Part shown: positions 25,264 through 37,402 of the stretch, piece by piece
Position numbering within the stretch: the stretch's first letter is position 1
How the letters are laid out: each line of letters starts with the position of its first letter
IMG/VR virus record: IMGVR_UViG_3300045988_064538
Direction: 5' to 3' (one strand)
DNA length: 37,402 nt
From: a virus
Translations under genes and position numbers: made by a program
The notes under the pieces: model-generated
Database searches by the model: none
What the model saw: only the letters and a program-made list of their open reading frames with translations
What the model was told of the DNA's origin: nothing

Positions 25264-27867
25264 ATGAATTTAGCGGATTTAATTTTAAGATTACGAGTTG
25301 ACGGAAGAGAACAAGCTAATCAAGAAATTGACGAAGCAACAAAACATGCAGAAAGTGCTACTGAACGTGGTAATGGAGCATTATCAAAGCTAGGTGGGGT
25401 TGTTGTTAAAGTTGGTTCGATGTGCGCCAAAGGTGTAGCGTTTTGTGCAACAGGTATTTCAACAATTACAGGTTTCGCGGTGAATGCGTATGGCGAATAC
25501 GAACAATTGGTCGGTGGTGTTGAAACACTTTTCGGTGCTCAAGGAATGAGCATAAAACAATATGCCAAAAGTGTTGGAAAAACAGTATCAGACGTTCAAG
25601 GTGATTACGCAAAACTTATTAAAGCTCAAAATAATGTAATGTCAAACGCTCACAAAGCTTATATAAAGCAAGGAATGAGCGCAAATAAGTATATGGAAAC
25701 AGTTACGACATTTAGCGCATCATTATTGCAAGGTTTAAAGGGTGATACGGTCAAAGCTAGTAAAGTTGCGGACATGGCAGTAACCGACATGGCGGATAAC
25801 GCTAATAAAATGGGTACGCAAATGGAAATGATACAAAACGCGTATCAAGGTTTCTCGAAACAAAACTATACAATGCTAGACAACTTGAAATTAGGTTATG
25901 GCGGTACTAAATCCGAAATGGAAAGATTACTAGCCGATGCAGAAAAGCTAACAGGGGTTAAATATGACATCAACAATCTAGCGGATGTATACAATGCAAT
26001 TCATGCTATTCAAAAGAATCTAGGAATTACAGGAACAACCGCCAAAGAAGCAATGCACACAATTCAAGGCTCTATGAATATGACAAAAGCATCATGGGAA
26101 AATCTTATGATAGGATTGTCAGACGGAAAACAAGATATCAGAGAATTGGCAAATCAATTTGGTACGTCATTTAATACTTTGGTTGATAATGTATTTCCGA
26201 GAGTCAAACAAGCTTTTGAAACAATACCGCTAGTAATGACGTTAATAATTCCACAATTATTGAATACAATCATCAATTTATTGCCGTCACTTTTGGGCGC
26301 AGTAGGACAATTGATTAGTGGTATTGCTCAAGCGTTACCAAGTCTAGCCACAAGCCTTTTCGGAGCGGTTAAGACTATATTTACAATGATTGTAAATGCA
26401 TTTACAAGCGGAGCACCTAAATTTATGGAATCCGCCAAGCAAATGGTTTCTAATTTGTGTAAAGGAATCGAGCAAAACTTACCTAGCATCATAAGCAGTG
26501 CTTTAGATATGCTTTTGAAATTTTCACAAGCAATATTGGAATATGCACCGCAGTTAGTTTCGATGGGTATGGATTTATTGATTTCGTTAGCGAAAGGAAT
26601 TGCAGATGCGATACCTACACTAATTGAAAAAGTACCGACAATCATATCAAATCTAGCTAATGCATTTAGTAATAGTGCAAGTACAATTTTCTTAAAAGGA
26701 ATTGAAATTATTATCGAATTAGGCAAAGGTTTGATTCAAGCTATACCAACATTAATCGCAAACATTCCGCAAATTATTAAAGCAATTTTTGATGTATGGA
26801 ATGCAGTGAATTGGTGGAATTTAGGTAAATCGTTAATTGATGGTATCTTAAACGGAATCGCCAATCTATGCGGAAGCCTTAAATCATCGGTTAGTCAGAT
26901 TTTCACAGACATAGAGAATATCATTAAAAACTCTATATCAAATGCCAAAAATGGAGCGGTGAACATTTTCCAAAGTATGGCACAATTCTTAAAAGATATT
27001 GCCGTAGGAATTTGGAATGTTATTAAAGCAACATTTACATCCATGCAAGGTGGAATTGATGGAATATTCAACGCTATCAAAAATCTAGCATCTATTATTT
27101 GGAATGGAATTAAAAGCTCTATTTCAAGCGTTGTACAAGCTATTAAAAATACAGTTGTGAGCATTATTACATCGGTATACATCAGTGTATCGTCAATATT
27201 CACGAATTTAAGCACAGGTACAAGTTCAATATGGAATGGTATTAGGAATATTATTTCAAGCGTTGTTAACGGAATTAGAGGTAACGTTACAAATGCATTC
27301 AGTTCATTAAGAGGTACTGTATCAAGTGTTTGGAACGGTATTAAAACCGCAATCACCAATCCTATATCTACCGCAGTATCAGTGGTTAGCGGATGTATTA
27401 GCAGAATTCGAAGCGCATTTAATTTCTCGTGGAGGTTGCCACATTTAGCGTTACCACACATTTCAATTCGTGGAAGATTCAGTCTAAAGCCACCAAGTGT
27501 TCCACATTTCGGAATCAGTTGGTATAAAAAAGCAATGGATGAACCTTACATGTTTACTAGACCTACACTATTTGGAATGGATTCCGTAACAGGAAACCTA
27601 AGAGGTGCGGGCGAAAGTGGCGATGAAATGATGTACGGTAAAAACAATTTAATGAACGACATTCGTCAAGCGGTAGCAACGGAAAACAATGGAGTTGCAC
27701 AAGTAGTGTATGAATGTTTCGATAAATTGTTCGAAATTTTAGGTGAGTATTTCCCTATGTTTGGTAACGTGAAAATGGTGCTTGATACAGGCACTTTAGT
27801 GGCGGAAACAGTTGAAGAAATAGATAAACAATTAGGAATAATCAAAAAAAGAAAGGATAGCAACTAG
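25264..27867 (+). CDS. Tail tape measure protein
   Basis: 867 aa, helical, with internal repeats such as IWNGIKSSISSVV / IWNGIRNIISSVV / VWNGIKTAIT. Canonical position. Confidence 0.85.
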   Translation: MNLADLILRLRVDGREQANQEIDEATKHAESATERGNGALSKLGGVVVKVGSMCAKGVAFCATGISTITGFAVNAYGEYEQLVGGVETLFGAQGMSIKQYAKSVGKTVSDVQGDYAKLIKAQNNVMSNAHKAYIKQGMSANKYMETVTTFSASLLQGLKGDTVKASKVADMAVTDMADNANKMGTQMEMIQNAYQGFSKQNYTMLDNLKLGYGGTKSEMERLLADAEKLTGVKYDINNLADVYNAIHAIQKNLGITGTTAKEAMHTIQGSMNMTKASWENLMIGLSDGKQDIRELANQFGTSFNTLVDNVFPRVKQAFETIPLVMTLIIPQLLNTIINLLPSLLGAVGQLISGIAQALPSLATSLFGAVKTIFTMIVNAFTSGAPKFMESAKQMVSNLCKGIEQNLPSIISSALDMLLKFSQAILEYAPQLVSMGMDLLISLAKGIADAIPTLIEKVPTIISNLANAFSNSASTIFLKGIEIIIELGKGLIQAIPTLIANIPQIIKAIFDVWNAVNWWNLGKSLIDGILNGIANLCGSLKSSVSQIFTDIENIIKNSISNAKNGAVNIFQSMAQFLKDIAVGIWNVIKATFTSMQGGIDGIFNAIKNLASIIWNGIKSSISSVVQAIKNTVVSIITSVYISVSSIFTNLSTGTSSIWNGIRNIISSVVNGIRGNVTNAFSSLRGTVSSVWNGIKTAITNPISTAVSVVSGCISRIRSAFNFSWRLPHLALPHISIRGRFSLKPPSVPHFGISWYKKAMDEPYMFTRPTLFGMDSVTGNLRGAGESGDEMMYGKNNLMNDIRQAVATENNGVAQVVYECFDKLFEILGEYFPMFGNVKMVLDTGTLVAETVEEIDKQLGIIKKRKDSN

Positions 27868-27869
27868 TT

Positions 27870-28562
27870 ATGTTTGGTGTAAAATTCGGAAATAAGCACT
27901 CATATGATGATTTCAACATGTATTTAAAAGAAAAAGATATAGGCTTTCCCGATGTTAAGCGTGAAACGGTAGAAATAGAAGGTCGTGACGGAAGTATCGA
28001 CCTTTCTACAGTTTTAACGAACGATGTTAAATACAAGAATAGAAAGCTATCGTTCACATTTCAAGCTATCGGAAGTAAATTTGATTTTCCTAATATCATT
28101 TCTAAAATTTCTAATTATTTACACGGTAGAAATTATCACGTTGTTTTAGATGAGGATAAAACATTTTATTATGAAGGTAATGTAACGATTAATAAATTCA
28201 AAACTAGCAAAGCGCTTGGAGAAATTACGATAGATGTGGATGCACAACCGTATAAAATGGAAGTTGTCGCAACAGGTGAACCGTGGATATGGGATACATT
28301 CTCATTTGTTGATGGAATCATCCATGCATCAGAATTAACAGTAAATGGAACGGCAACAATAAACCTTATAAACAGGCGAAAGGTTGTATCACCAACAATT
28401 ACGTGTTCGGATGCTATGAGCGCTACACTAAATGGAGTTACAGTCCAATTAAAAAAAGGAGAAAATAAAGTTTTCGACTTTAGATTAAAAGAAGGTGACA
28501 ATGTTGTTACTTTTAAAGGTAATGGCAAAGTCAATATTATGTATAGAGGGGGTTCATTATAA
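27870..28562 (+). CDS. Distal tail protein (Dit)
   Basis: 230 aa immediately after the tape measure. The N-terminal FGNKHSYDDF...VKRETVEIEGRDGSIDLS pattern is typical of siphovirus tail component proteins. Confidence 0.7.
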   Translation: MFGVKFGNKHSYDDFNMYLKEKDIGFPDVKRETVEIEGRDGSIDLSTVLTNDVKYKNRKLSFTFQAIGSKFDFPNIISKISNYLHGRNYHVVLDEDKTFYYEGNVTINKFKTSKALGEITIDVDAQPYKMEVVATGEPWIWDTFSFVDGIIHASELTVNGTATINLINRRKVVSPTITCSDAMSATLNGVTVQLKKGENKVFDFRLKEGDNVVTFKGNGKVNIMYRGGSL

Positions 28563-31075
28563 TGTACACAGTATATTGCGATGAAAAGCCTATTTATGAT
28601 TTACGAAACGAAGAACTTGTGTTAGGCTCACCAAAATTAACTTTGGAAGAATCAAATACAGGTTCTTTTCAATTTACTATATTGCCGACACATCCATATT
28701 ATGATGATGTTATTGATTTGGTTTCGAATATTGTTGTAAAGCAAGATGGTGAAGAAATATTCAGTGGTATTCCAACGGAACACACAGAGGATTTCTACAA
28801 AAGAAGAACATTTTATTGTACAGGCGAATTATCGTATTTGAAAAACACAACTCAACCAATGGCAGAATATCACGATGTTACGGTTCGTGGGTTTCTAGAA
28901 GCGTTATTGAATATTCATAACGCAAAGGTTGTCGAAAAAAACAAATTCTATGTTGGAGAGGTAACTGTAAAAGATAACAACGATTCACTTTACAGATACA
29001 CGAATTATGAAACTACACTAGAGTGCATCAATGAAAAGTTGATAAAAAAATTAGGTGGTCACATCAAAATCAGAAAAGAAAACGGAAAGCGATATATCGA
29101 CTATATAGAAGATTATGCAAAGGTTTCTAATCAGATTATACAGTTTGGCGAAAACCTCATGGATTTTACCAAGGATTACGATACATCGGATATATGTACG
29201 GTATTAATTCCTTTAGGAGCTAGGCAAGATGAATCGCCAATTAGTGCTTTAGATGCATATTTAGATATAACGAGCGTTAACGATGGAAAGAATTACATAG
29301 TCAATCAAGAAGCCGTCAACAAGTACGGATGGATTGAAAAAGTAGTTAAATGGGATGATGTAAATGTTCCAACAATTTTAAAGACAAAAGGCGAAAAGTA
29401 TTTAAAAGAAGTACAATACGAGCCACAGACTTTAGAAATTAAAGCTATTGATTTACATAATCTAAACATTAATACCGATGCAATTAGGGTTTTGGATTCG
29501 GTTAGAGTTGTATCTAAACCGCACAATCTAGATAAATTCTTTTTAGTTACAAAACGACAAATTCCTTTAAATAAGCCGAGTGATGAAGTGTTCACATTCG
29601 GTGCTAAAATAAGAGAATCATTGACGGATACAACACAAAAAGAAAATGCAGATGTAAAAAACAAATTAAATTCAATTCCTAATAAATCGGAGATTTTAGA
29701 TGAAGCACGTAAAAACGCTACACAGATTATTCATGATGCAACGCACGGTCATGTCGTAACAACGGCTAACGAGCAATTAATCATGGATACAGATGATGTA
29801 AAAACCGCAAAGAATTTATGGAGATGGAATTTAGGCGGTTTAGCACATTCTAGTAACGGTTATGATGGTGCATATGACACGACTATAACAATGGATGGTC
29901 AAATTGCTGGTGAGCGCATTATTGCCAATTCAATCGATGCATCTAAATTAAGTATCAATTACAAGCAAAGTGTTGAAAAGAAAATAACCGTATCACTTGA
30001 TGATTCGAAGAAATATGCAGATGAAAAAGCAACAGGCGCAAAAGAATACACAGATGGACAAGTTACGGAAGCTAAAGATTACGCTAATACTCAAGCTAGT
30101 AACGCAGAATCGAAAGCCAACGAAGCAACGGACAAAAAGTTACAAAGCTATTGGACGAGTGTGGAAACGCAAACGAAAATTGAAAACAGTGCAGAAAAAG
30201 TAATTATTAGTGCATCTGAGAAAGCAACACAAATAGCAAACGAAGCACTAACGAACGCAAAAAACTACACAGATAACAAATTAGTTGATTATGTTACGAG
30301 TGCAAAATTAGAGGTTGAAAAAAATCAAATTTCTTTGAACGCACAAGAATACGCTATGGCATGCGCCAACTCATCGCTATCAAGTGCTAACGGGTACACG
30401 AATAGCCAATTAAAAGAATACGTTACAAGTGCGGACTTAAAGGTAAAAACAGATGCAATCGAAGCATCCGTATCAAAAAAAGTAGGAAACGATGAGTGGT
30501 CAACTAAGCTAAAACAAAGTGCAACGGATATTCAATTTGCATGGAATTCATGCAGTGATTACATCAAGTTTATTGATGGAGAAATGAAAGTGTATGAATC
30601 ATCAACTAATACAGATGATACATTGTTAGCTAGCTTCTATAAAAGAGGAATAACTTTATACAAAGATGGTTCGCGTTTAGGTATGATTGGAACAAATAAC
30701 ATTATAGGAAACGAAAGTGTTAAAGGAATTGTTTTCGATTTAAATTATAGCGGTTCATACATGGCTTGGGCATCAAAAGATGTTAACGACGATGTAAATG
30801 AATATACCATAAAATTAGCGTATGTTGGAAAAGGGAGAGGTTTTGAAAACCATGAAGAAGATGCGCTATATAGCACAGTAACGCTAGATATGCGAAACCA
30901 TTACCTAAAAAATCCTATATTTAAAATCGGCGATGATATAGGCAAAAATTTGACATTCAATTTCTATCAATGCACGAGTGTAACAGACCACAAAGGTAAT
31001 TTTCCAACCACACCATGTTATCTTAGATTCAAACACGGGTTAATGGTTGATGCTAAAGTGTTTCAAATAACATAG
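28562..31075 (+). CDS. Tail-associated protein (Tal / prophage tail endopeptidase family) with coiled-coil C-terminal half
   Basis: 837 aa after Dit. The mid-region has repeated K.YTD.Q...AK.YA-type coiled-coil units. Confidence 0.7.
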   Translation: MYTVYCDEKPIYDLRNEELVLGSPKLTLEESNTGSFQFTILPTHPYYDDVIDLVSNIVVKQDGEEIFSGIPTEHTEDFYKRRTFYCTGELSYLKNTTQPMAEYHDVTVRGFLEALLNIHNAKVVEKNKFYVGEVTVKDNNDSLYRYTNYETTLECINEKLIKKLGGHIKIRKENGKRYIDYIEDYAKVSNQIIQFGENLMDFTKDYDTSDICTVLIPLGARQDESPISALDAYLDITSVNDGKNYIVNQEAVNKYGWIEKVVKWDDVNVPTILKTKGEKYLKEVQYEPQTLEIKAIDLHNLNINTDAIRVLDSVRVVSKPHNLDKFFLVTKRQIPLNKPSDEVFTFGAKIRESLTDTTQKENADVKNKLNSIPNKSEILDEARKNATQIIHDATHGHVVTTANEQLIMDTDDVKTAKNLWRWNLGGLAHSSNGYDGAYDTTITMDGQIAGERIIANSIDASKLSINYKQSVEKKITVSLDDSKKYADEKATGAKEYTDGQVTEAKDYANTQASNAESKANEATDKKLQSYWTSVETQTKIENSAEKVIISASEKATQIANEALTNAKNYTDNKLVDYVTSAKLEVEKNQISLNAQEYAMACANSSLSSANGYTNSQLKEYVTSADLKVKTDAIEASVSKKVGNDEWSTKLKQSATDIQFAWNSCSDYIKFIDGEMKVYESSTNTDDTLLASFYKRGITLYKDGSRLGMIGTNNIIGNESVKGIVFDLNYSGSYMAWASKDVNDDVNEYTIKLAYVGKGRGFENHEEDALYSTVTLDMRNHYLKNPIFKIGDDIGKNLTFNFYQCTSVTDHKGNFPTTPCYLRFKHGLMVDAKVFQIT

Positions 31076-31462: not shown

Positions 31463-33307
31463 ATGCCAAATATTCAAAATGAGATAAACCAAATTAAAAA
31501 TGCGGTTTACGGAGAAGAAGTTCGTGAATCGATTATCGGAGCAATTAAAAAAGTAAATGACGATAACGAGTCTTACGAAACAATCAAAGCAGAATTAAAA
31601 GGAATAAAAACAGATTTAGATAATTCAAAAGCAACACTAGAGAGCATTAAAAGTGCAACTAATACGGCATCGACAACGAAAGCAAACCTTGACACATCCA
31701 CTTCTAAAGCTACACAAGCTAAAAAAGACTTGGACAGTTCAATAACAGATGCTACAAGTGCAAAAAAAGCTTTAGACACATCGGTATCAACTGCCAATAC
31801 ATCTAAATCTAATTTAGATAAATCGGTAACGAGCGGTAATAATTCTAAAACAGAATTGGATAAATCTATTGAATCGGCAAAAACAAATAAAACTAACTTA
31901 GATTCATCTAATACAACGGCTACAAATACATTGAATTCTCTTAAATCAGAGAATTCAAAAGCTCAAGGATATTTGAATCAAGTAACATCAGAAAAAGCCA
32001 ATCAAATTTTAAACGGAATTTCAGATGTTAAAGACTATCTAGGATTAGTCGATACACAAGTCGTTGGATTACAGGTCGATTATAAGAATCGTACATTTAA
32101 ACGATTATGCGGAGCGGTTGGACTAAACAAAGGCTCGGATTTCAATAAGTTTAAAATGTATGGTGGACGTAGACGTTGTAATGTGGCGGATGATGGAACA
32201 ATCAAAGCGTATTATGGCGATAGCGGATATAAAGAAGATGGTTCAAATGGGCAAGTAATGGTTTATCAACCTAAATTCTATTACAACGTCGTGCCCGTTG
32301 AAACGGAGCAAATTTCAACAACAAAAAAAGGCTACCATATGCGTAAAGCTAATTATTACGTATCGGATGTGCCAAAACCAAACTTTAAAGTGCATCCCGT
32401 GTTCTTTGACAAAAACGGAAAAGAAACGGATTATGTATTATTATCGGCTTTTGAAGGTTCGTTATACGATACATCGGCTAGTAAATATCTAGCAAACGAT
32501 GAACAAGTTGCGGATTTTAGCACAGATAAATTATGTTCAATTGCGAATGTCCGTCCAACATCGGGATTATCACAAGATTTGACTAGACCAAAAACGGAAC
32601 AATTAGCAAAAAATCGTGGTGACGGTTGGCATCAATTAAACATTAAGATGACATCAATGGAACAATTACTAATGATGATTGAATTAGGGACTATGGATGT
32701 ACAAAGTGCAATTGGACAAGGTGTCACAAGTATTCCCGATAATGGTTCAACATCATGTGCATCTTATACAGGTTCAACATCATCACTAGGTAATAACACA
32801 GGAATGGCGAATGCAACCAAAGACTACACAGGAACATCCCAAACCGCAAATGGTAAAGTCGCTATTTCATATCGTGGAGTTGAAAACTTCTATGGTTCTA
32901 TTTGGAAGTTTGCAAGTGGAATGAATATCTATGGAAACGGAAAAATGGACGGTGGAATGGCATATATTTGCGATGATTTTACATATGCCGAAGGAAAGAA
33001 CACAGACAATTATAAACCGTGCGGATTTACATTAACGCCTAAAAGTGGATTTATTTCCGCGATGGGATATAGTGAAGAATACGATTGGTTGTTCCTAGCA
33101 TCTGAATGTAACGGCAATAGTGCTCTACCCGTTGGCGATTACACGTGGGTTACTGAAAACCTAAACGGTTATCGTATCGCCCTATTGGGTGGGCGTTGGA
33201 ATAATGGCGGTTATTCGGGGGCTTTCTGTTGGTATTTGGCTTACGGTGTCGGTAGTCGGAATCGTAATGTCGGTGGTCGCTTGTCGTATATCCCCACTAT
33301 GTCATAG
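31463..33307 (+). CDS. Tail fibre / receptor-binding protein, DGR target (C-terminal C-type-lectin-fold-like variable region)
   Basis: N-terminus NEINQIKNAVYGEEVRESIIGAI is typical of tail fibre anchors, followed by 14-residue repeats. The C-terminal GGRWNNGGYSGAFCWYLAYGVGSRNRNVGGRL is encoded by the VR. Confidence 0.85.
   Translation: MPNIQNEINQIKNAVYGEEVRESIIGAIKKVNDDNESYETIKAELKGIKTDLDNSKATLESIKSATNTASTTKANLDTSTSKATQAKKDLDSSITDATSAKKALDTSVSTANTSKSNLDKSVTSGNNSKTELDKSIESAKTNKTNLDSSNTTATNTLNSLKSENSKAQGYLNQVTSEKANQILNGISDVKDYLGLVDTQVVGLQVDYKNRTFKRLCGAVGLNKGSDFNKFKMYGGRRRCNVADDGTIKAYYGDSGYKEDGSNGQVMVYQPKFYYNVVPVETEQISTTKKGYHMRKANYYVSDVPKPNFKVHPVFFDKNGKETDYVLLSAFEGSLYDTSASKYLANDEQVADFSTDKLCSIANVRPTSGLSQDLTRPKTEQLAKNRGDGWHQLNIKMTSMEQLLMMIELGTMDVQSAIGQGVTSIPDNGSTSCASYTGSTSSLGNNTGMANATKDYTGTSQTANGKVAISYRGVENFYGSIWKFASGMNIYGNGKMDGGMAYICDDFTYAEGKNTDNYKPCGFTLTPKSGFISAMGYSEEYDWLFLASECNGNSALPVGDYTWVTENLNGYRIALLGGRWNNGGYSGAFCWYLAYGVGSRNRNVGGRLSYIPTMS
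33176..33284 (+). repeat. DGR variable repeat (VR)
   Basis: Aligns without gaps to 33381-33489 at offset 205. 19 mismatches, all where TR has A. The boundary is uncertain by a few nt (possibly to 33286). Confidence 0.9.
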
Positions 33308-33321
33308 ATTATTTAAGTATA

Positions 33322-33330
33322 TGTTATAAT
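33322..33330 (+). promoter_or_regulatory. Candidate extended -10 promoter (tgttataat) for the TR-spacer-RT transcript
   Basis: TGnTATAAT match 15 nt after the target gene stop and about 50 nt upstream of TR. No good -35. Confidence 0.35.
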
Positions 33331-33380
33331 ATACATAGGTTAATATCATCGTGATTTACTGATTTGCAAAAATTAAATCA

Positions 33381-33489
33381 ATCACCCAATTAGGTGGGAA
33401 TTGGAATAATGGCAGTAATTCGGGAGCTTTCTATTGGAATTTGAATAACAGTGTCAGTAATCGGAATCGTAATATCAGTGGTCACTTGT
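33381..33489 (+). repeat. DGR template repeat (TR)
   Basis: Noncoding copy of VR. Read in the VR frame it carries 10 AAY codons and several AGT codons. 33 adenines by hand count. Confidence 0.9.
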
Positions 33490-33689
33490 AATGTGCTTTA
33501 AGAATTAATTTTTGTTTAAAACCGAATCATCAAACGGTTCGGTTTTAATATAACTGAATGATATTGACCTTGGCACTTGCCAAAACATAAAAGACCGTAC
33601 TACACGGCAACAATTTAAAAGTGTATTAGTAGGCTATGTATTAGCTCGAAAGTTCGCAAAAATTGCATACGTTTTTAGAAGGATTTAGA
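33490..33689 (+). ncRNA. Spacer region of the putative DGR RNA (between TR and RT)
   Basis: About 200 nt with no ORF. Holds the hairpin aaaaccgaa(33518-33526)/ttcggtttt(33538-33546) and smaller stems ttggc-actt-gccaa and ccgt-actac-acgg. Confidence 0.45.
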
Positions 33690-34754
33690 ATGAAGAGAAT
33701 AGGAAATATTTATAGCAAAATTTATGATATGGAAAATTTAAGACTAGCTCACAAAAACGCTAGACGTGGAAAAGGATGGTATGAAGAAGTTAAACGTGTG
33801 GATGCAAATTTAGATTACTATTTGAACAAATTGCAAAAGCAGTTGATTAATCATACATATAAAACATCTAAATACACTACATTCATAAAACATGACAGTG
33901 GAAAAGATAGAGAAATTTACAGATTGCCATATTTCCCCGACAGAATTTGCCAATGGGCGATTTTACAAGTAATAAGTGATTACATATTAAAGAATCTAAC
34001 AAGCAATACTTATTCGGCTATTCCAAACAGAGGAATACATTACGGATATAAAAAAATGCAGAAAGATATACAAAACAACAAAGAAAAATGTAAATATTGC
34101 TTAAAAATCGATGCTAGAAAATATTATCCATCAATTAATCACGACATTCTTAAATCTAAATATAGAAGCATTTTCAAAGATAAAGAATTACTTTGGTTGC
34201 TAGATGAAATAATCGACTCAACCGAAGGAGATACAGGAATTCCAATCGGTAACTATTTGTCACAATTCAGTGGCAATTTTTATTTGTCGAGTTTTGACCA
34301 TTGGATTAAAGAAGAAAAACACGTCGATTCTTACCATAGATATATGGATGATATTGTAATTTTCGCAGAAACAAAAGAAGAATTATATCTTTTAAGAATT
34401 GAAATCGACAAATATTTTAGAGAAAAACTAAAACTAGAAATGAAAGGCAATTGGCAAATATTCCCCACATTTGTTAGAGGTGTTGACTTTCTAGGATATA
34501 GATTTTTTGGAGACTACACGCTATTAAGAAAATCAACTTTAAAAAGAATGAAAAGAGCACTGATACCAATTCACAAAAAAGTTAGCAAAGGAAATATGAT
34601 TAATTATCATGAGTGGTGTCAAATTAATTCGTATAAAGGTTGGTTGAAATGGTGTGATAGCTTTAATTTGTATCGAAAATATATCTTGCCTTTAGAAAAT
34701 GCTTGTGATTCGTATTACACGAATGTAATCAAAAGAAAGGTGTGCATAACATGA
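33690..34754 (+). CDS. DGR reverse transcriptase
   Basis: ATG at 33690 lies 6 nt after agaagga, whereas the track ORF starts at a TTG at 33663. Motifs: SGKDREI, ARKYYPSI, IGNYLSQ (the DGR-type [ILV]GxxxSQ) and RYMDDIVIF (YxDD). Confidence 0.9.
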   Translation: MKRIGNIYSKIYDMENLRLAHKNARRGKGWYEEVKRVDANLDYYLNKLQKQLINHTYKTSKYTTFIKHDSGKDREIYRLPYFPDRICQWAILQVISDYILKNLTSNTYSAIPNRGIHYGYKKMQKDIQNNKEKCKYCLKIDARKYYPSINHDILKSKYRSIFKDKELLWLLDEIIDSTEGDTGIPIGNYLSQFSGNFYLSSFDHWIKEEKHVDSYHRYMDDIVIFAETKEELYLLRIEIDKYFREKLKLEMKGNWQIFPTFVRGVDFLGYRFFGDYTLLRKSTLKRMKRALIPIHKKVSKGNMINYHEWCQINSYKGWLKWCDSFNLYRKYILPLENACDSYYTNVIKRKVCIT

Positions 34755-35011
34755 AAGATTACGGATTGCAGAAAAGTGCCGTAAAGCCGTCAGAGCGAGA
34801 GTTCACAGAAAGCAAAGTATTTGTATATACAGATATAAAAGAAGTTGTAGAAAGCTCGGAAAATGGTGATATTAACCTATTTGAATTTAATATGATTGAA
34901 TATGATAAAGATGAATTTATTGAATTATTGTCAGACAAAAATAAATCATTAGAATCAGAAATCACAGAAATTCAATTAGCATTGTGTGATGTATATGAAA
35001 GGCAAGGTTAA
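34751..35011 (+). CDS. Small acidic protein, ATGA-coupled to the RT (XkdW-like phage protein or DGR accessory candidate)
   Basis: The ATG at 34751 overlaps the RT stop at 34752-34754. 86 aa and acidic. C-terminus is SLESEITEIQLALCDVYE. Confidence 0.5.
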   Translation: MKDYGLQKSAVKPSEREFTESKVFVYTDIKEVVESSENGDINLFEFNMIEYDKDEFIELLSDKNKSLESEITEIQLALCDVYERQG

Positions 35012-37060: not shown

Positions 37061-37095
37061 GAAAGCAACCTATGGTTAATTCCATAGGTTCTTTC
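37061..37095. repeat. 35-bp near-perfect inverted repeat (candidate attP core, or a hairpin)
   Basis: gaaag(c)aacctatgg ttaatt ccataggttctttc: 14-bp arms with one bulge and no flanking T-run. Lies between the lysin and the integrase on the circular map. Confidence 0.35.
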
Positions 37096-37152
37096 GTATG
37101 CTATAATGGAAAAGGTTTGAGGTTAATATACATTTTGATGTTAATCTATGGA

Positions 37153-37184
37153 AGCCCTGTTTATACAGGGCTCTTTTTTATTTT
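37153..37184 (+). terminator. Rho-independent terminator of the lysis operon
   Basis: Stem agccctgt / acagggct, loop ttat, then cttttttatttt. Confidence 0.7.
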
Positions 37185-37209
37185 CCTAAAAAAACTATTT
37201 ACAAGCGGT

Positions 37210-37365
37210 ATGTTGTACAAAGAATTAATCACATTACCAATTGGAACGTGGGCGAAAGACGGAGATATCACAAAGGATGAAAAAATGAAATTAATCGATT
37301 TAGTGCGTGAGTTAAGAGAAGATGTGCTAAAGGTTTATAATAATAGAAAAAAGGCTAATTGTTAG
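37210..37365 (+). CDS. Possible small ORF (51 aa) between the lysis terminator and the integrase
   Basis: This is the distal part of track ORF 37072-37365. The upstream part spans two hairpins and is unlikely to be coding. Weak RBS. The ORF ends inside the bidirectional terminator. Confidence 0.25.
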   Translation: MLYKELITLPIGTWAKDGDITKDEKMKLIDLVRELREDVLKVYNNRKKANC

Positions 37366-37402
37366 CCTTTTTAATTTGTGTATACATCCACGCTCTCATG
37401 AA
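37326..37402. repeat. Right copy of 77-nt terminal direct repeat (identical to 1-77)
   Basis: Same 77 nt as the window start. Either a circular-assembly overlap or a true direct terminal repeat. Confidence 0.95.

Follow-up and report, generated by a model that had tools for sequence, protein, structure and literature searches.

The 37,402-nt viral sequence IMGVR_UViG_3300045988_064538 of the IMG/VR collection (hereafter the window, meaning the whole stretch of DNA that was analysed) very probably contains a functional diversity-generating retroelement (DGR) that rewrites the tip of a tail fibre in a temperate siphophage, or prophage, of a low-GC gut Clostridia bacterium. The element consists of a variable repeat (VR) near the 3' end of a gene for a tail-fibre/receptor-binding protein (the target), a template repeat (TR) and a gene for a reverse transcriptase (RT). 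A first-pass annotation, made from the letters and their open reading frames (ORFs), had already proposed a DGR at this place, and the interpretation was upheld in its adenine-only mismatches, its DGR-type RT, its fibre tip with a C-type lectin (CLec) fold and the activity of its lineage. The parts of the cassette are:

31463..33307, + strand: target gene, an ORF for the 614-aa tail-fibre/receptor-binding protein (phrog_5302 'tail protein', E = 5e-97)
32450..33304, + strand: C-terminal CLec-fold domain of the target, residues 330–614, which displays the VR (AlphaFold2 model, pLDDT 94.3, pTM 0.91)
33176..33284, + strand: VR (all mismatches at TR adenines)
33194..33270, + strand: VR core, codons 578–603, actively diversified (column variability; sister phages L083 and L088)
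33271..33287, + strand: A-free 3' end of the VR, GGTGGTCGCTTGTCGT against AGTGGTCACTTGTAAT in the TR, invariant across relatives; putative initiation of mutagenic homing (IMH) site
33381..33489, + strand: TR (repeat finder and exact comparison; nearly invariant among relatives)
33690..34754, + strand: DGR reverse transcriptase, 354 aa (RVT_1, E = 1e-16; best PDB match 8ub7)

The VR and TR form a gapless pair at an offset of 205 nt, with 83% identity, and are the top direct repeat of their region; the repeat finder reproduced exactly the alignment that had been made by hand. By exact count, 19 of the 109 positions differ (A>G at 13, A>T at 4 and A>C at 2), every one of them at one of the 33 adenines of the TR and none at a C, G or T. 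All of the numbers given earlier were thus correct, and differences at non-adenine template positions, which had been named as evidence against a DGR, were absent. The probability that all mismatches fall by chance on the adenines is 1.0e-12 (hypergeometric). Two copies of the repeat, and no more, were found within the window by a degenerate pattern search, and the similarity between them is ended by mismatches at positions other than A, which set in at 33174 on the left and at 33288 on the right. The VR lies in frame, as codons 572–608 of the target ORF, and the TR, which starts 73 nt past the target stop codon, is non-coding. Read in the VR frame, the TR gives ITQLGGNWNNGSNSGAFYWNLNNSVSNRNRNISGHL, with an abundance of AAT and AAC codons (AAY, where Y is C or T).

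The DGR is active in this lineage. Eight independent close relatives have a nearly invariant TR and scrambled VRs, with 163 of 165 VR/TR mismatches at TR adenines; the columns that vary among them comprise 25 of the 33 TR adenines and only 4 of the 76 other positions. Three of these four non-A columns are explained by substitutions in the TR that recur in the VR of the same element (locus L085 has G>T and T>C, L083 has T>C), and such mirrored changes are direct evidence of information flow from TR to VR. The samples behind the sister phages L083 and L088 carry consecutive numbers. Outside the VR core a single substitution in 7,336 nt separates the two phages, against 15 in the 77 nt of the core. 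The divergence of the core is 12–27% at any background divergence, whether 0.01% or 8.5%; it is saturated irrespective of the background and the VR therefore turns over faster than the genome diverges. At the protein level, there are 201 distinct sequences in the cluster to which the target belongs at 90% identity, and among target relatives that are 93–96% identical the substitutions are concentrated at residues 578–603. The earlier suggestion that heavy VR/TR divergence indicates recent activity is therefore only half retained: the activity stands, for the lineage, because near-identical sisters differ in the VR and non-A changes of the TR are mirrored there, whereas divergence alone is no evidence of it, being saturated and including 8 fixed A>G differences among the 19 (see below).

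Some relatives depart from this pattern. The TR of L085 has lost five adenines (the equivalents of window positions 33408, 33414, 33418, 33425 and 33438), each of which now reads as in its own VR, and this suggests VR-to-TR back-conversion or template erosion. L119 (2601–2985 and 3289–3552) is a decayed relative that keeps VR and TR and has lost the RT, and L098, L102, L143 and L144 keep a fibre homologue and the small ORF that follows the RT in the window, with neither TR nor RT. The existence of such decayed loci, together with the eroded template of L085, gives some substance to the idea that the window copy is a fossil, that is, a DGR that was active in the past, retains VR/TR differences as relics and no longer diversifies its target. 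This is improbable in view of the intact RT ORF, with all its catalytic and DGR-specific residues, of a TR that keeps 33 adenines in AAY codons, of the RNA helices described below, all of which are intact in the window, and of the sister phages, in which the same cassette shows VR turnover at about one background substitution per 7 kb.

The RT gene starts at the ATG at 33690, with an AGAAGGA ribosome-binding site at 33677–33683, 7 nt upstream of the ATG. The ORF and its motifs were confirmed as first read, IGNYLSQ at residues 186–192 and YMDD at residues 218–221. DGR RTs have [I/V/L]GxxxSQ in place of the QGxxxSP of other RTs. Among all PDB sequences, the best match is chain A of 8ub7, over the full length and with E = 2.8e-33, followed by group II intron and retron-type RTs at E values of 1e-11 to 1e-14 (7e-14 for one group II intron RT). 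Judged from its residue numbering, 8ub7 is the RT from Bordetella phage BPP-1 (bRT), since it reproduces D138, M214, D215, D216, R74, I76, A78 and I181–Q187 (PMC7826257; bioRxiv 10.1101/2023.10.23.563531). The IGNYLSQ of the window RT aligns to I181–Q187 of bRT, and the arginine equivalent to R74 is kept; R74 and I181 are the two bRT residues that promote adenine misincorporation. The scores against NCBIfam models of other RT classes lie far below the cutoffs (100 against a cutoff of 300 for group II and 39 against 235 for the retron model, with Drt2, Drt3a and Drt5 all far under their cutoffs), and Rfam matched neither intron RNA domains nor retron msr/msd in the window. When relatives of the RT were gathered without regard to repeats, VR/TR pairs with an adenine bias were present at 68 of the 80 genome loci and at 61 of the 80 viral ones, the latter with 1,383 of 1,410 mismatches at A, and the gene order is constant and compact: VR, TR, a spacer of about 110–230 nt, and RT. 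The best PDB match, the motifs and these neighbouring pairs, on which the call of the clade rests, support a DGR-type RT, and the choice between DGR, retron and group II affinities that had been left to a later check falls to the first. The rival view that the repeat is no more than a duplication that has diverged, or a tract of gene conversion, and that the RT beside it comes from a group II intron, a retron or a defence system, would fit the generic RVT_1 match taken alone, and it can be dismissed given mismatches confined to adenines, a TR that is conserved while the VR varies, bRT as the closest structural relative, the low group II, retron and Drt scores and the lack of intron domains or msr/msd in Rfam.

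The target protein is composed of an N-terminal coiled coil (about residues 1–190, with weak matches of coiled-coil type), a middle region and a C-terminal domain that, on the evidence of the structural model, is a C-type lectin fold of the DGR type. The model of residues 330–614 was built with AlphaFold2 from 105 diverse homologues; a run on residues 200–614 with 22 close homologues reached a pLDDT of 32 and was discarded. A Foldseek search of the PDB with this domain returned TaqVP (5vf4), a DGR variable protein from Thermus aquaticus, first, in three chains (E = 1.5e-10 to 1.5e-9, probability 1.00, query-normalised TM-score 0.52), and later five variants of the BPP-1 target Mtd, TvpA, formylglycine-generating enzyme (FGE) and snake C-type lectins. 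A family profile of the last 230 residues, searched against 177,635 PDB sequences, placed 5vf4 and three Mtd variants as its top four matches, with VR aligned to VR. Pfam gave no domain in the target or in 31 diverse relatives, the CLec, FGE and DUF1566 families being unmatched, and NCBIfam gave no match for the target; for this reason the fold was assigned from the structure and the PDB profile, and it is the agreement of Foldseek with the independent sequence profile that points to the DGR type. The CLec fold that had been expected for this C-terminus was thereby borne out by structure prediction. The coiled coil differs in length (total sizes of 516, 600 and 614 aa) among phages that are otherwise 93–97% identical, in the region 31463–32030, and these variants arise via deletions of 14 and 98 aa within Ser/Thr-rich heptad repeats.

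The adenines of the TR behave as two classes. They were surveyed in 102 distinct VR/TR pairs of the family, which are phylogenetically non-independent. In the scrambled class, formed by adenines in AAY, TAT and ATC codons (578, 580, 581, 584, 589, 591, 593, 594, 598, 600, 602 and 603), the VR shows A in 40–55%, G in about 30% and C or T in 20–25%. The adenines of the fixed class are conserved in the TR, yet the VR has G in 94–99% and never C or T, for example at codon positions 585.3 (69/70), 595.1 (78/80), 604.1 (92/94), 606.2 (100/101) and 607.3 (84/86); within the A-free VR 3' end, A>G is fixed at 33272 in 92 of 94 family members and at 33279 in 100 of 101. The class can be predicted from context: adenines before G, or within CAC or TAC, are nearly always G in the VR. 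An A before G becomes G in 95% (n = 390); by triplet, the share is 96% for CAG, 93% for TAG and 89% for TAC. At four-fold-degenerate third positions in the tract, 73 of 78 outcomes are G, the other five are A and none is C or T. Protein-level selection cannot account for this bias, even if the cluster at 604–608 can be read as IMH versus IMH* and codons 583, 587 and 595 as Gly/Ala selection. The same rule was found in 52 VR/TR pairs from distant Bacteroidota-type DGRs with unrelated targets, where AG gives 92% G and CAG 96%. Eight of the 19 mismatches in the window belong to the fixed class (VR positions 33179, 33187, 33209, 33220, 33245, 33251, 33272 and 33279; TR counterparts 33384, 33392, 33414, 33425, 33450, 33456, 33477 and 33484), with G, and few A, in all relatives, which leaves only about 11 mismatches as a record of free diversification.

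The fixed class might stem from an RT that is sensitive to context, from A-to-I editing of the TR RNA or from a G·T repair bias at integration. BPP-1 bRT is swayed by the 3' neighbour in the template, an NAC context lifting dG misincorporation to 27% (PMC12875486), and a near-deterministic outcome of this kind was not reported in the literature that we compared, this study included. Primer dislocation found no support as a general cause of AG>GG, as A before T or C shows no excess of T or C. An effect of the 3' neighbour alone was rejected, given that non-AG contexts also yield G in seven of eight cases at four-fold-degenerate sites, a small sample in which context and position are inseparable.

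The RNA that surrounds the TR has a conserved architecture, whose elements in the window are:

33322..33330, + strand: extended -10-like TGTTATAAT, candidate promoter of the TR-RT unit
33337..33351, + strand: upstream strand of a duplex that brackets the TR (cPRT-Stop-like), predicted to pair with 33555–33570 at -15.8 kcal/mol
33492..33496, + strand: 5' strand UGUGC of the outer helix P0, paired with GCAUA at 33665–33669 (covariation)
33518..33546, + strand: stem-loop P1, with a 13-bp stem, just 3' of the TR (spacer alignment and folding)
33555..33570, + strand: spacer strand of the TR-bracketing duplex, paired with 33337–33351
33571..33593, + strand: mini-hairpin UGGC ACUU GCCA, followed by the single-stranded A-rich tract AAACAUAAAAG (covariation)
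33594..33608, + strand: inserted, lineage-specific hairpin P3 (spacer alignment)
33620..33671, + strand: 3' domain of the spacer RNA, with long-range helix P4, which encloses UAGUAG, hairpin P5 (33632–33646) and CGAAAG, and then GCAUAC; equivalent to the 3' portion of Rfam RT-17

The architecture was derived from an alignment of 41 dereplicated TR-RT spacers, from loci whose RTs are 55–70% identical to that of the window; a global fold of the TR plus spacer was no better than that of shuffled sequences, and the structure is seen only comparatively. Directly 3' of the TR, the spacers share a segment that contains AUGC. Also shared are a hairpin (P1) that varies in sequence and is missing in about one relative in three, the near-invariant GACC-N-UGCC-ACUU-GGCA-AAACAYAAAA, a helix of long range whose strands enclose UGGUAG, a variable hairpin and UUGAAG, and, just before the ribosome-binding site, GCAUAC. 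Three helices are supported by RNAalifold and by an explicit count of pairs, with 88% of cells paired against 78% in shuffles and a covariation score of 0.40 against 0.20; none of 500 shuffles reaches this score, and controls with slid partners stay at or below 0.10. In the mini-hairpin, pairing holds in 98.8% of cells, six sequences having GC>AU and three having CG>GC, and the window itself has the compensatory swap UGGC/GCCA for UGCC/GGCA (CG>GC). In P4, 95% of cells are paired and compensatory changes occur in six of the seven pairs.

The TR-bracketing duplex is 10–14 bp long in 38 of 39 lineages and abuts the mini-hairpin. Its strands are unrelated in sequence from one lineage to another, yet always complementary (for example GGGUCAGACAAU/AUUGUCUGACCC and GGUUGAAAGAA/UUCUUUCAACC), with a mean of -18.0 kcal/mol for cognate strands against -9.6 for non-cognate ones across the 39 lineages, a value reached in none of 10,000 permutations. 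P0, in which the AUGC-NNN after the TR pairs with the NNN-GCAU before the ribosome-binding site, has -7.6 kcal/mol for cognate against -5.5 for non-cognate strands (0 of 5,000 permutations). The 3' part of the spacer matches Rfam RT-17 (RF03020), and eight of 12 relatives are at or above its gathering score, with 40.9–68.4 bits at the homologous position. RT-1 to RT-19 were described as RT-associated motifs by Weinberg et al. (2017), who located RT-10 in the TR-brt spacer of BPP-1, mentioned a DGR role of the other motifs only as speculation and assigned no function to RT-17 (PMC5737381). Comparison of these sequences makes the TR-RT spacer a probable RT-17-type motif and a DGR function likely for this orphan Rfam family.

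In the mechanism that we propose, a transcript would begin just upstream of the TR and extend through the spacer, probably into the RT gene. The TR within it would be bracketed by the duplex 33337–33351/33555–33570, of 13–15 bp, and followed by the mini-hairpin, the A-tract and the RT-17-type 3' domain. The RT would bind this RNA and copy the TR into cDNA, faithfully except for misincorporation at AAY-type adenines. By analogy with BPP-1, the cDNA would be primed in cis from the spacer and stopped at the duplex, and the A-free VR 3' end would serve as the IMH site. The cDNA would then replace the VR core, 33194–33270, at the 3' end of the tail-fibre gene, re-randomising about 12 codons predicted to lie on the surface of the CLec-fold tip, with a probable change in receptor specificity, that is, receptor switching as in BPP-1.

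Several points weigh against this reading or narrow it. The activity of the window's own copy is deduced from sister phages with 92–96% nucleotide identity, and receptor binding by the tip is putative. Neither Avd nor HRDC was detected: there is no ORF of at least 32 aa between the target stop and the RT start, no Avd-like Pfam family occurs in the best 25 of the 31 families matched by the window's 42 small ORFs (the remainder at E > 0.0014), and HRDC was not detected in the window; as Avd sequences are poorly conserved, the first negative covers recognisable homologues. Avd or HRDC is present in about 74% of DGRs and is not obligatory. bRT is inactive without Avd, and the biochemistry of BPP-1 is for this reason not simply transferable to an element that has none. 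A stable hairpin or cruciform 3' of the VR was not found, folding there being no better than in shuffled sequence (z = -0.4), and a priming nucleotide or template:primer duplex could not be identified with confidence in the spacer. The candidate promoter was recognised by consensus match only; TGTTATAAT is not a conserved motif in relatives and is absent from the list of a two-hexamer promoter scan, which gave nothing useful on the + strand before the TR. P0 is the weakest helix in the window, with only 5 bp, and the RT-17 match of the window (28.6 bits, E = 8e-4, 33593–33672) is below the gathering score of 40.4. The latter is low because the inserted hairpin P3 disturbs the alignment, being misread by cmscan as the first RT-17 stem.

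The 5' strand of the duplex follows the -10-like box at a distance of 6 nt, so that a transcript from this box would begin at the structured DGR RNA. Relatives carry instead a TATAT/TATAA-like box that abuts the duplex.

The RT gene is followed by a small ORF that may belong to the element:

34751..35011, + strand: acidic ORF of 86 aa; its ATG and the RT stop codon overlap in ATGA (phrog_18126, E = 1e-23)

The protein has 21 D and E against 10 K and R. It has no Pfam or NCBIfam match (nor does the 87-aa ORF upstream of the target), tblastn found no match in annotated phages, and its profile gave only chance-level matches against PDB sequences. Homologues are coupled to the RT in 23 RT-anchored genome loci, whose RTs are 55–70% identical. 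When the small protein alone was the query, 424 relatives were found on viral contigs, and among the best 80 the RT is directly upstream in 74 and lacking in five; in four of these five the fibre gene ends 60–80 nt before the ORF and both TR and RT are lacking, and the fifth is the decayed L119. The N-terminal 45 or so residues are homologous to RT-coupled ORFs of Bacteroidota and Patescibacteria DGRs (hhalign probability 85%, E = 7e-6) and to gp043 of the crAss-like phage cr50_1 (E = 3e-11), in which the order is RT, small ORF and tail protein, the target. About nine of 33 RT-anchored Firmicute loci have no small ORF, and in Perkons, the closest annotated phage, a different ORF of 449 aa follows the RT.

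A DGR accessory factor and a fibre-associated protein are both candidates for the role of this ORF. We see roughly even chances that it encodes a chaperone, an assembly factor or a distal tail component of the fibre, with the TR-RT module inserted between the two genes. In phages that lack the RT, the small ORF adjoins the fibre gene; it is placed where the tail module meets the lysis module, and it has a PHROG family among phage proteins. Such a role leaves two facts unexplained, namely the overlap with the RT stop, conserved across phyla, and the order RT, small ORF, target of the crAss-like phages. These same facts speak for a second explanation, to which we attach a somewhat lower probability, short of even: an accessory subunit that replaces Avd, possibly of the CH1 family of Wu et al. 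The ATG overlaps the RT stop and the coupling holds in the 23 genome loci, the RT is directly upstream in 74 of the best 80 viral loci, the N-terminal module recurs in RT-coupled ORFs of Bacteroidota, Patescibacteria and crAss-like phages, and from the crAss-like order it follows that the constant neighbour is the RT and not the target. CH1 proteins have 160–169 aa and a pI of about 4.7, and they are restricted to Avd-less DGRs (PMC5758913); the 86-aa protein is likewise small and acidic and occurs in an Avd-less DGR, a likeness by acidity and context alone. Against an accessory subunit, four RT-less loci keep the small ORF, and a DGR is thus not needed for the protein to persist or, presumably, to function; about nine of the 33 Firmicute loci do without it; Perkons has its 449-aa ORF in its place; the protein is acidic, unlike the basic, nucleic-acid-binding Avd; and no PDB or Pfam relative points to nucleic-acid binding.

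The superfamily of small acidic ORFs coupled to the RT stop was seen in loci L001–L044, downstream of the RT, and in L172 (1572–1916). Bacteroidota DGRs show coupling of the RT to a second, unrelated ORF family, of about 98–115 aa ('MKxFSDFxIK...FPFxTTI'), with an overlap of 3–54 nt at the RT stop (loci L045, L048, L050, L051, L052, L056, L058, L059, L061, L063, L064, L067, L078 and L079). Most of these Bacteroidota DGRs have one TR for two or three VRs and small targets of about 130–160 aa.

A broader conjecture would join these strands: the RT clade, with its members in Firmicute siphophages, crAss-like phages, Bacteroidota and Patescibacteria, would run an Avd-independent retrohoming with the coupled acidic protein as partner and with near-deterministic A-to-G conversion at AG, CAC and TAC, by the RT itself or in a step of RNA editing or repair, and its TRs could 'hide' structurally essential G as A, with AAY meaning randomise and AG or CAC meaning write G. 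Taken as a whole, we regard this as unlikely.

The window is essentially one temperate siphophage. A gene scan gave:

99–1592, - strand: large serine integrase
25264–27867: tape-measure gene
27870–28562: Dit
28562–31075: Tal, with a Prophage_tail domain

The early genes (single-stranded-DNA-binding protein, HNH, dUTPase and helix-turn-helix regulators) are followed by the head genes. Tape-measure, Dit and Tal genes precede the target, and holin and endolysin genes come later, the order being 87-aa ORF, 614-aa target, TR, RT, 86-aa ORF, holin, 135-aa ORF and Amidase_2/SH3_5 endolysin. The window had no match at the nucleotide level in the annotated phage collection. Sister copies lie in bacterial contigs beside a Peptidase_M3 gene and HydE/G/F genes, and the GC content of the host flank is 33%, like that of the phage. 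The host is a low-GC gut Clostridia bacterium; a more precise name, Roseburia hominis, came from one HydG match and the label of a metagenome-assembled genome (MAG) and is doubtful, as it conflicts with the 33% GC of the flank and HydG otherwise points only to 'Clostridia'. In the sister contigs (L087, 15445–16113; L081, 9779–9845), the integrase abuts a short Peptidase_M3 (oligoendopeptidase F-like) ORF, the corresponding window ends being 99–1592 and 37072–37402, and this arrangement suggests that the prophage integrates into the Peptidase_M3 gene. A small ORF in the early region matches Gln_amidase (PF15644, a papain-fold toxin/glutamine deamidase; E = 4e-15), which is unusual for a temperate phage. 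A RAGATH-8 RNA (RF02687, 115 bits) was seen about 5 kb downstream of the DGR of L036 (6433–6690), on a contig of a Cloacimonadota-labelled MAG.

The element itself is of an abundant, known kind, the common receptor-switching device of gut phages. What goes slightly beyond the routine is a mapped RNA architecture with a likely role for RT-17, a candidate partner protein and the two-class adenine rule. The cassette is compact (TR, spacer RNA and RT in about 1.6 kb, without Avd) and has hundreds of natural relatives with abundant VR variation. How retrohoming proceeds independently of Avd has been open since Wu et al. 2018, and the RNA architecture, the candidate partner and the adenine contexts are testable handles on it. 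The AG-to-GG rule, if mechanistic, would allow a choice of which adenines randomise in engineered, DGR-based targeted mutagenesis.

Compared with known systems, the target domain is closest to TaqVP, its best structural and profile match, with the GNxWxW motif in both and the VRs aligned. The two are only 16% identical, TaqVP is a cellular protein and that of the window belongs to a phage tail, where it has an additional coiled-coil N-terminus and a middle region. The spacer resembles RT-17 in its position directly upstream of the RT gene, and the window aligns throughout with the matching relatives; the Rfam model spans the mini-hairpin to GCAUAC, and the TR-bracketing duplex and P0 fall outside it. 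The cryo-EM structure of the BPP-1 complex has a 'cPRT Stop' made of a TR-bracketing duplex, a short stem-loop and unpaired adenosines, predicted in 207 of 278 DGRs with Avd, and the same RNA design is present here, though in an Avd-less lineage.

The likeness to the BPP-1 DGR as a whole (mtd-avd-TR-brt) includes a phage-borne element, a diversified C-terminal CLec-fold tip of a tail fibre, adenine-specific transfer from TR to VR, AAY codons in the TR and an RT with [I/V/L]GxxxSQ and the R74 equivalent. The window differs in the lack of avd, in a TR that lies 73 nt past the target stop, in a spacer with RT-17 and not RT-10, in the lack of a hairpin flanking the VR and in the use of AAT rather than AAC in the TR; its target is about 13% identical to Mtd, and its phage is a temperate siphophage of a Firmicute. 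P1 holds the position that in BPP-1 is occupied by the Avd-binding stem-loop. The Mtd/Brt paradigm invoked in the first-pass annotation consequently holds for the DGR reading and fails in its Avd, which is absent here.

Wu et al. (2018) described an Architecture A, the TR-RT core, in 29% of DGRs and also a Lineage 3 that lacks Avd, whose homing they suggested to be independent of Avd (PMC5758913). With target-VR, TR and RT on one strand and without avd, HRDC or MSL, the window element is, by its gene content, of this known Avd-less TR-RT architecture, the likeness to Lineage 3 being one of architecture and not of an RT tree; the RT-coupled acidic ORF of about 86 aa is not among their four accessory classes. 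Also close are the DGRs from gut Firmicute prophages (such as those of Faecalibacterium, PMC11792537) and from crAss-like phages such as cr50_1, which differ in virion type and gene order and share with the window related target C-terminal domains, RTs that are 45% identical to it in the crAss-like case, an origin in the human gut and a small ORF of the same superfamily.

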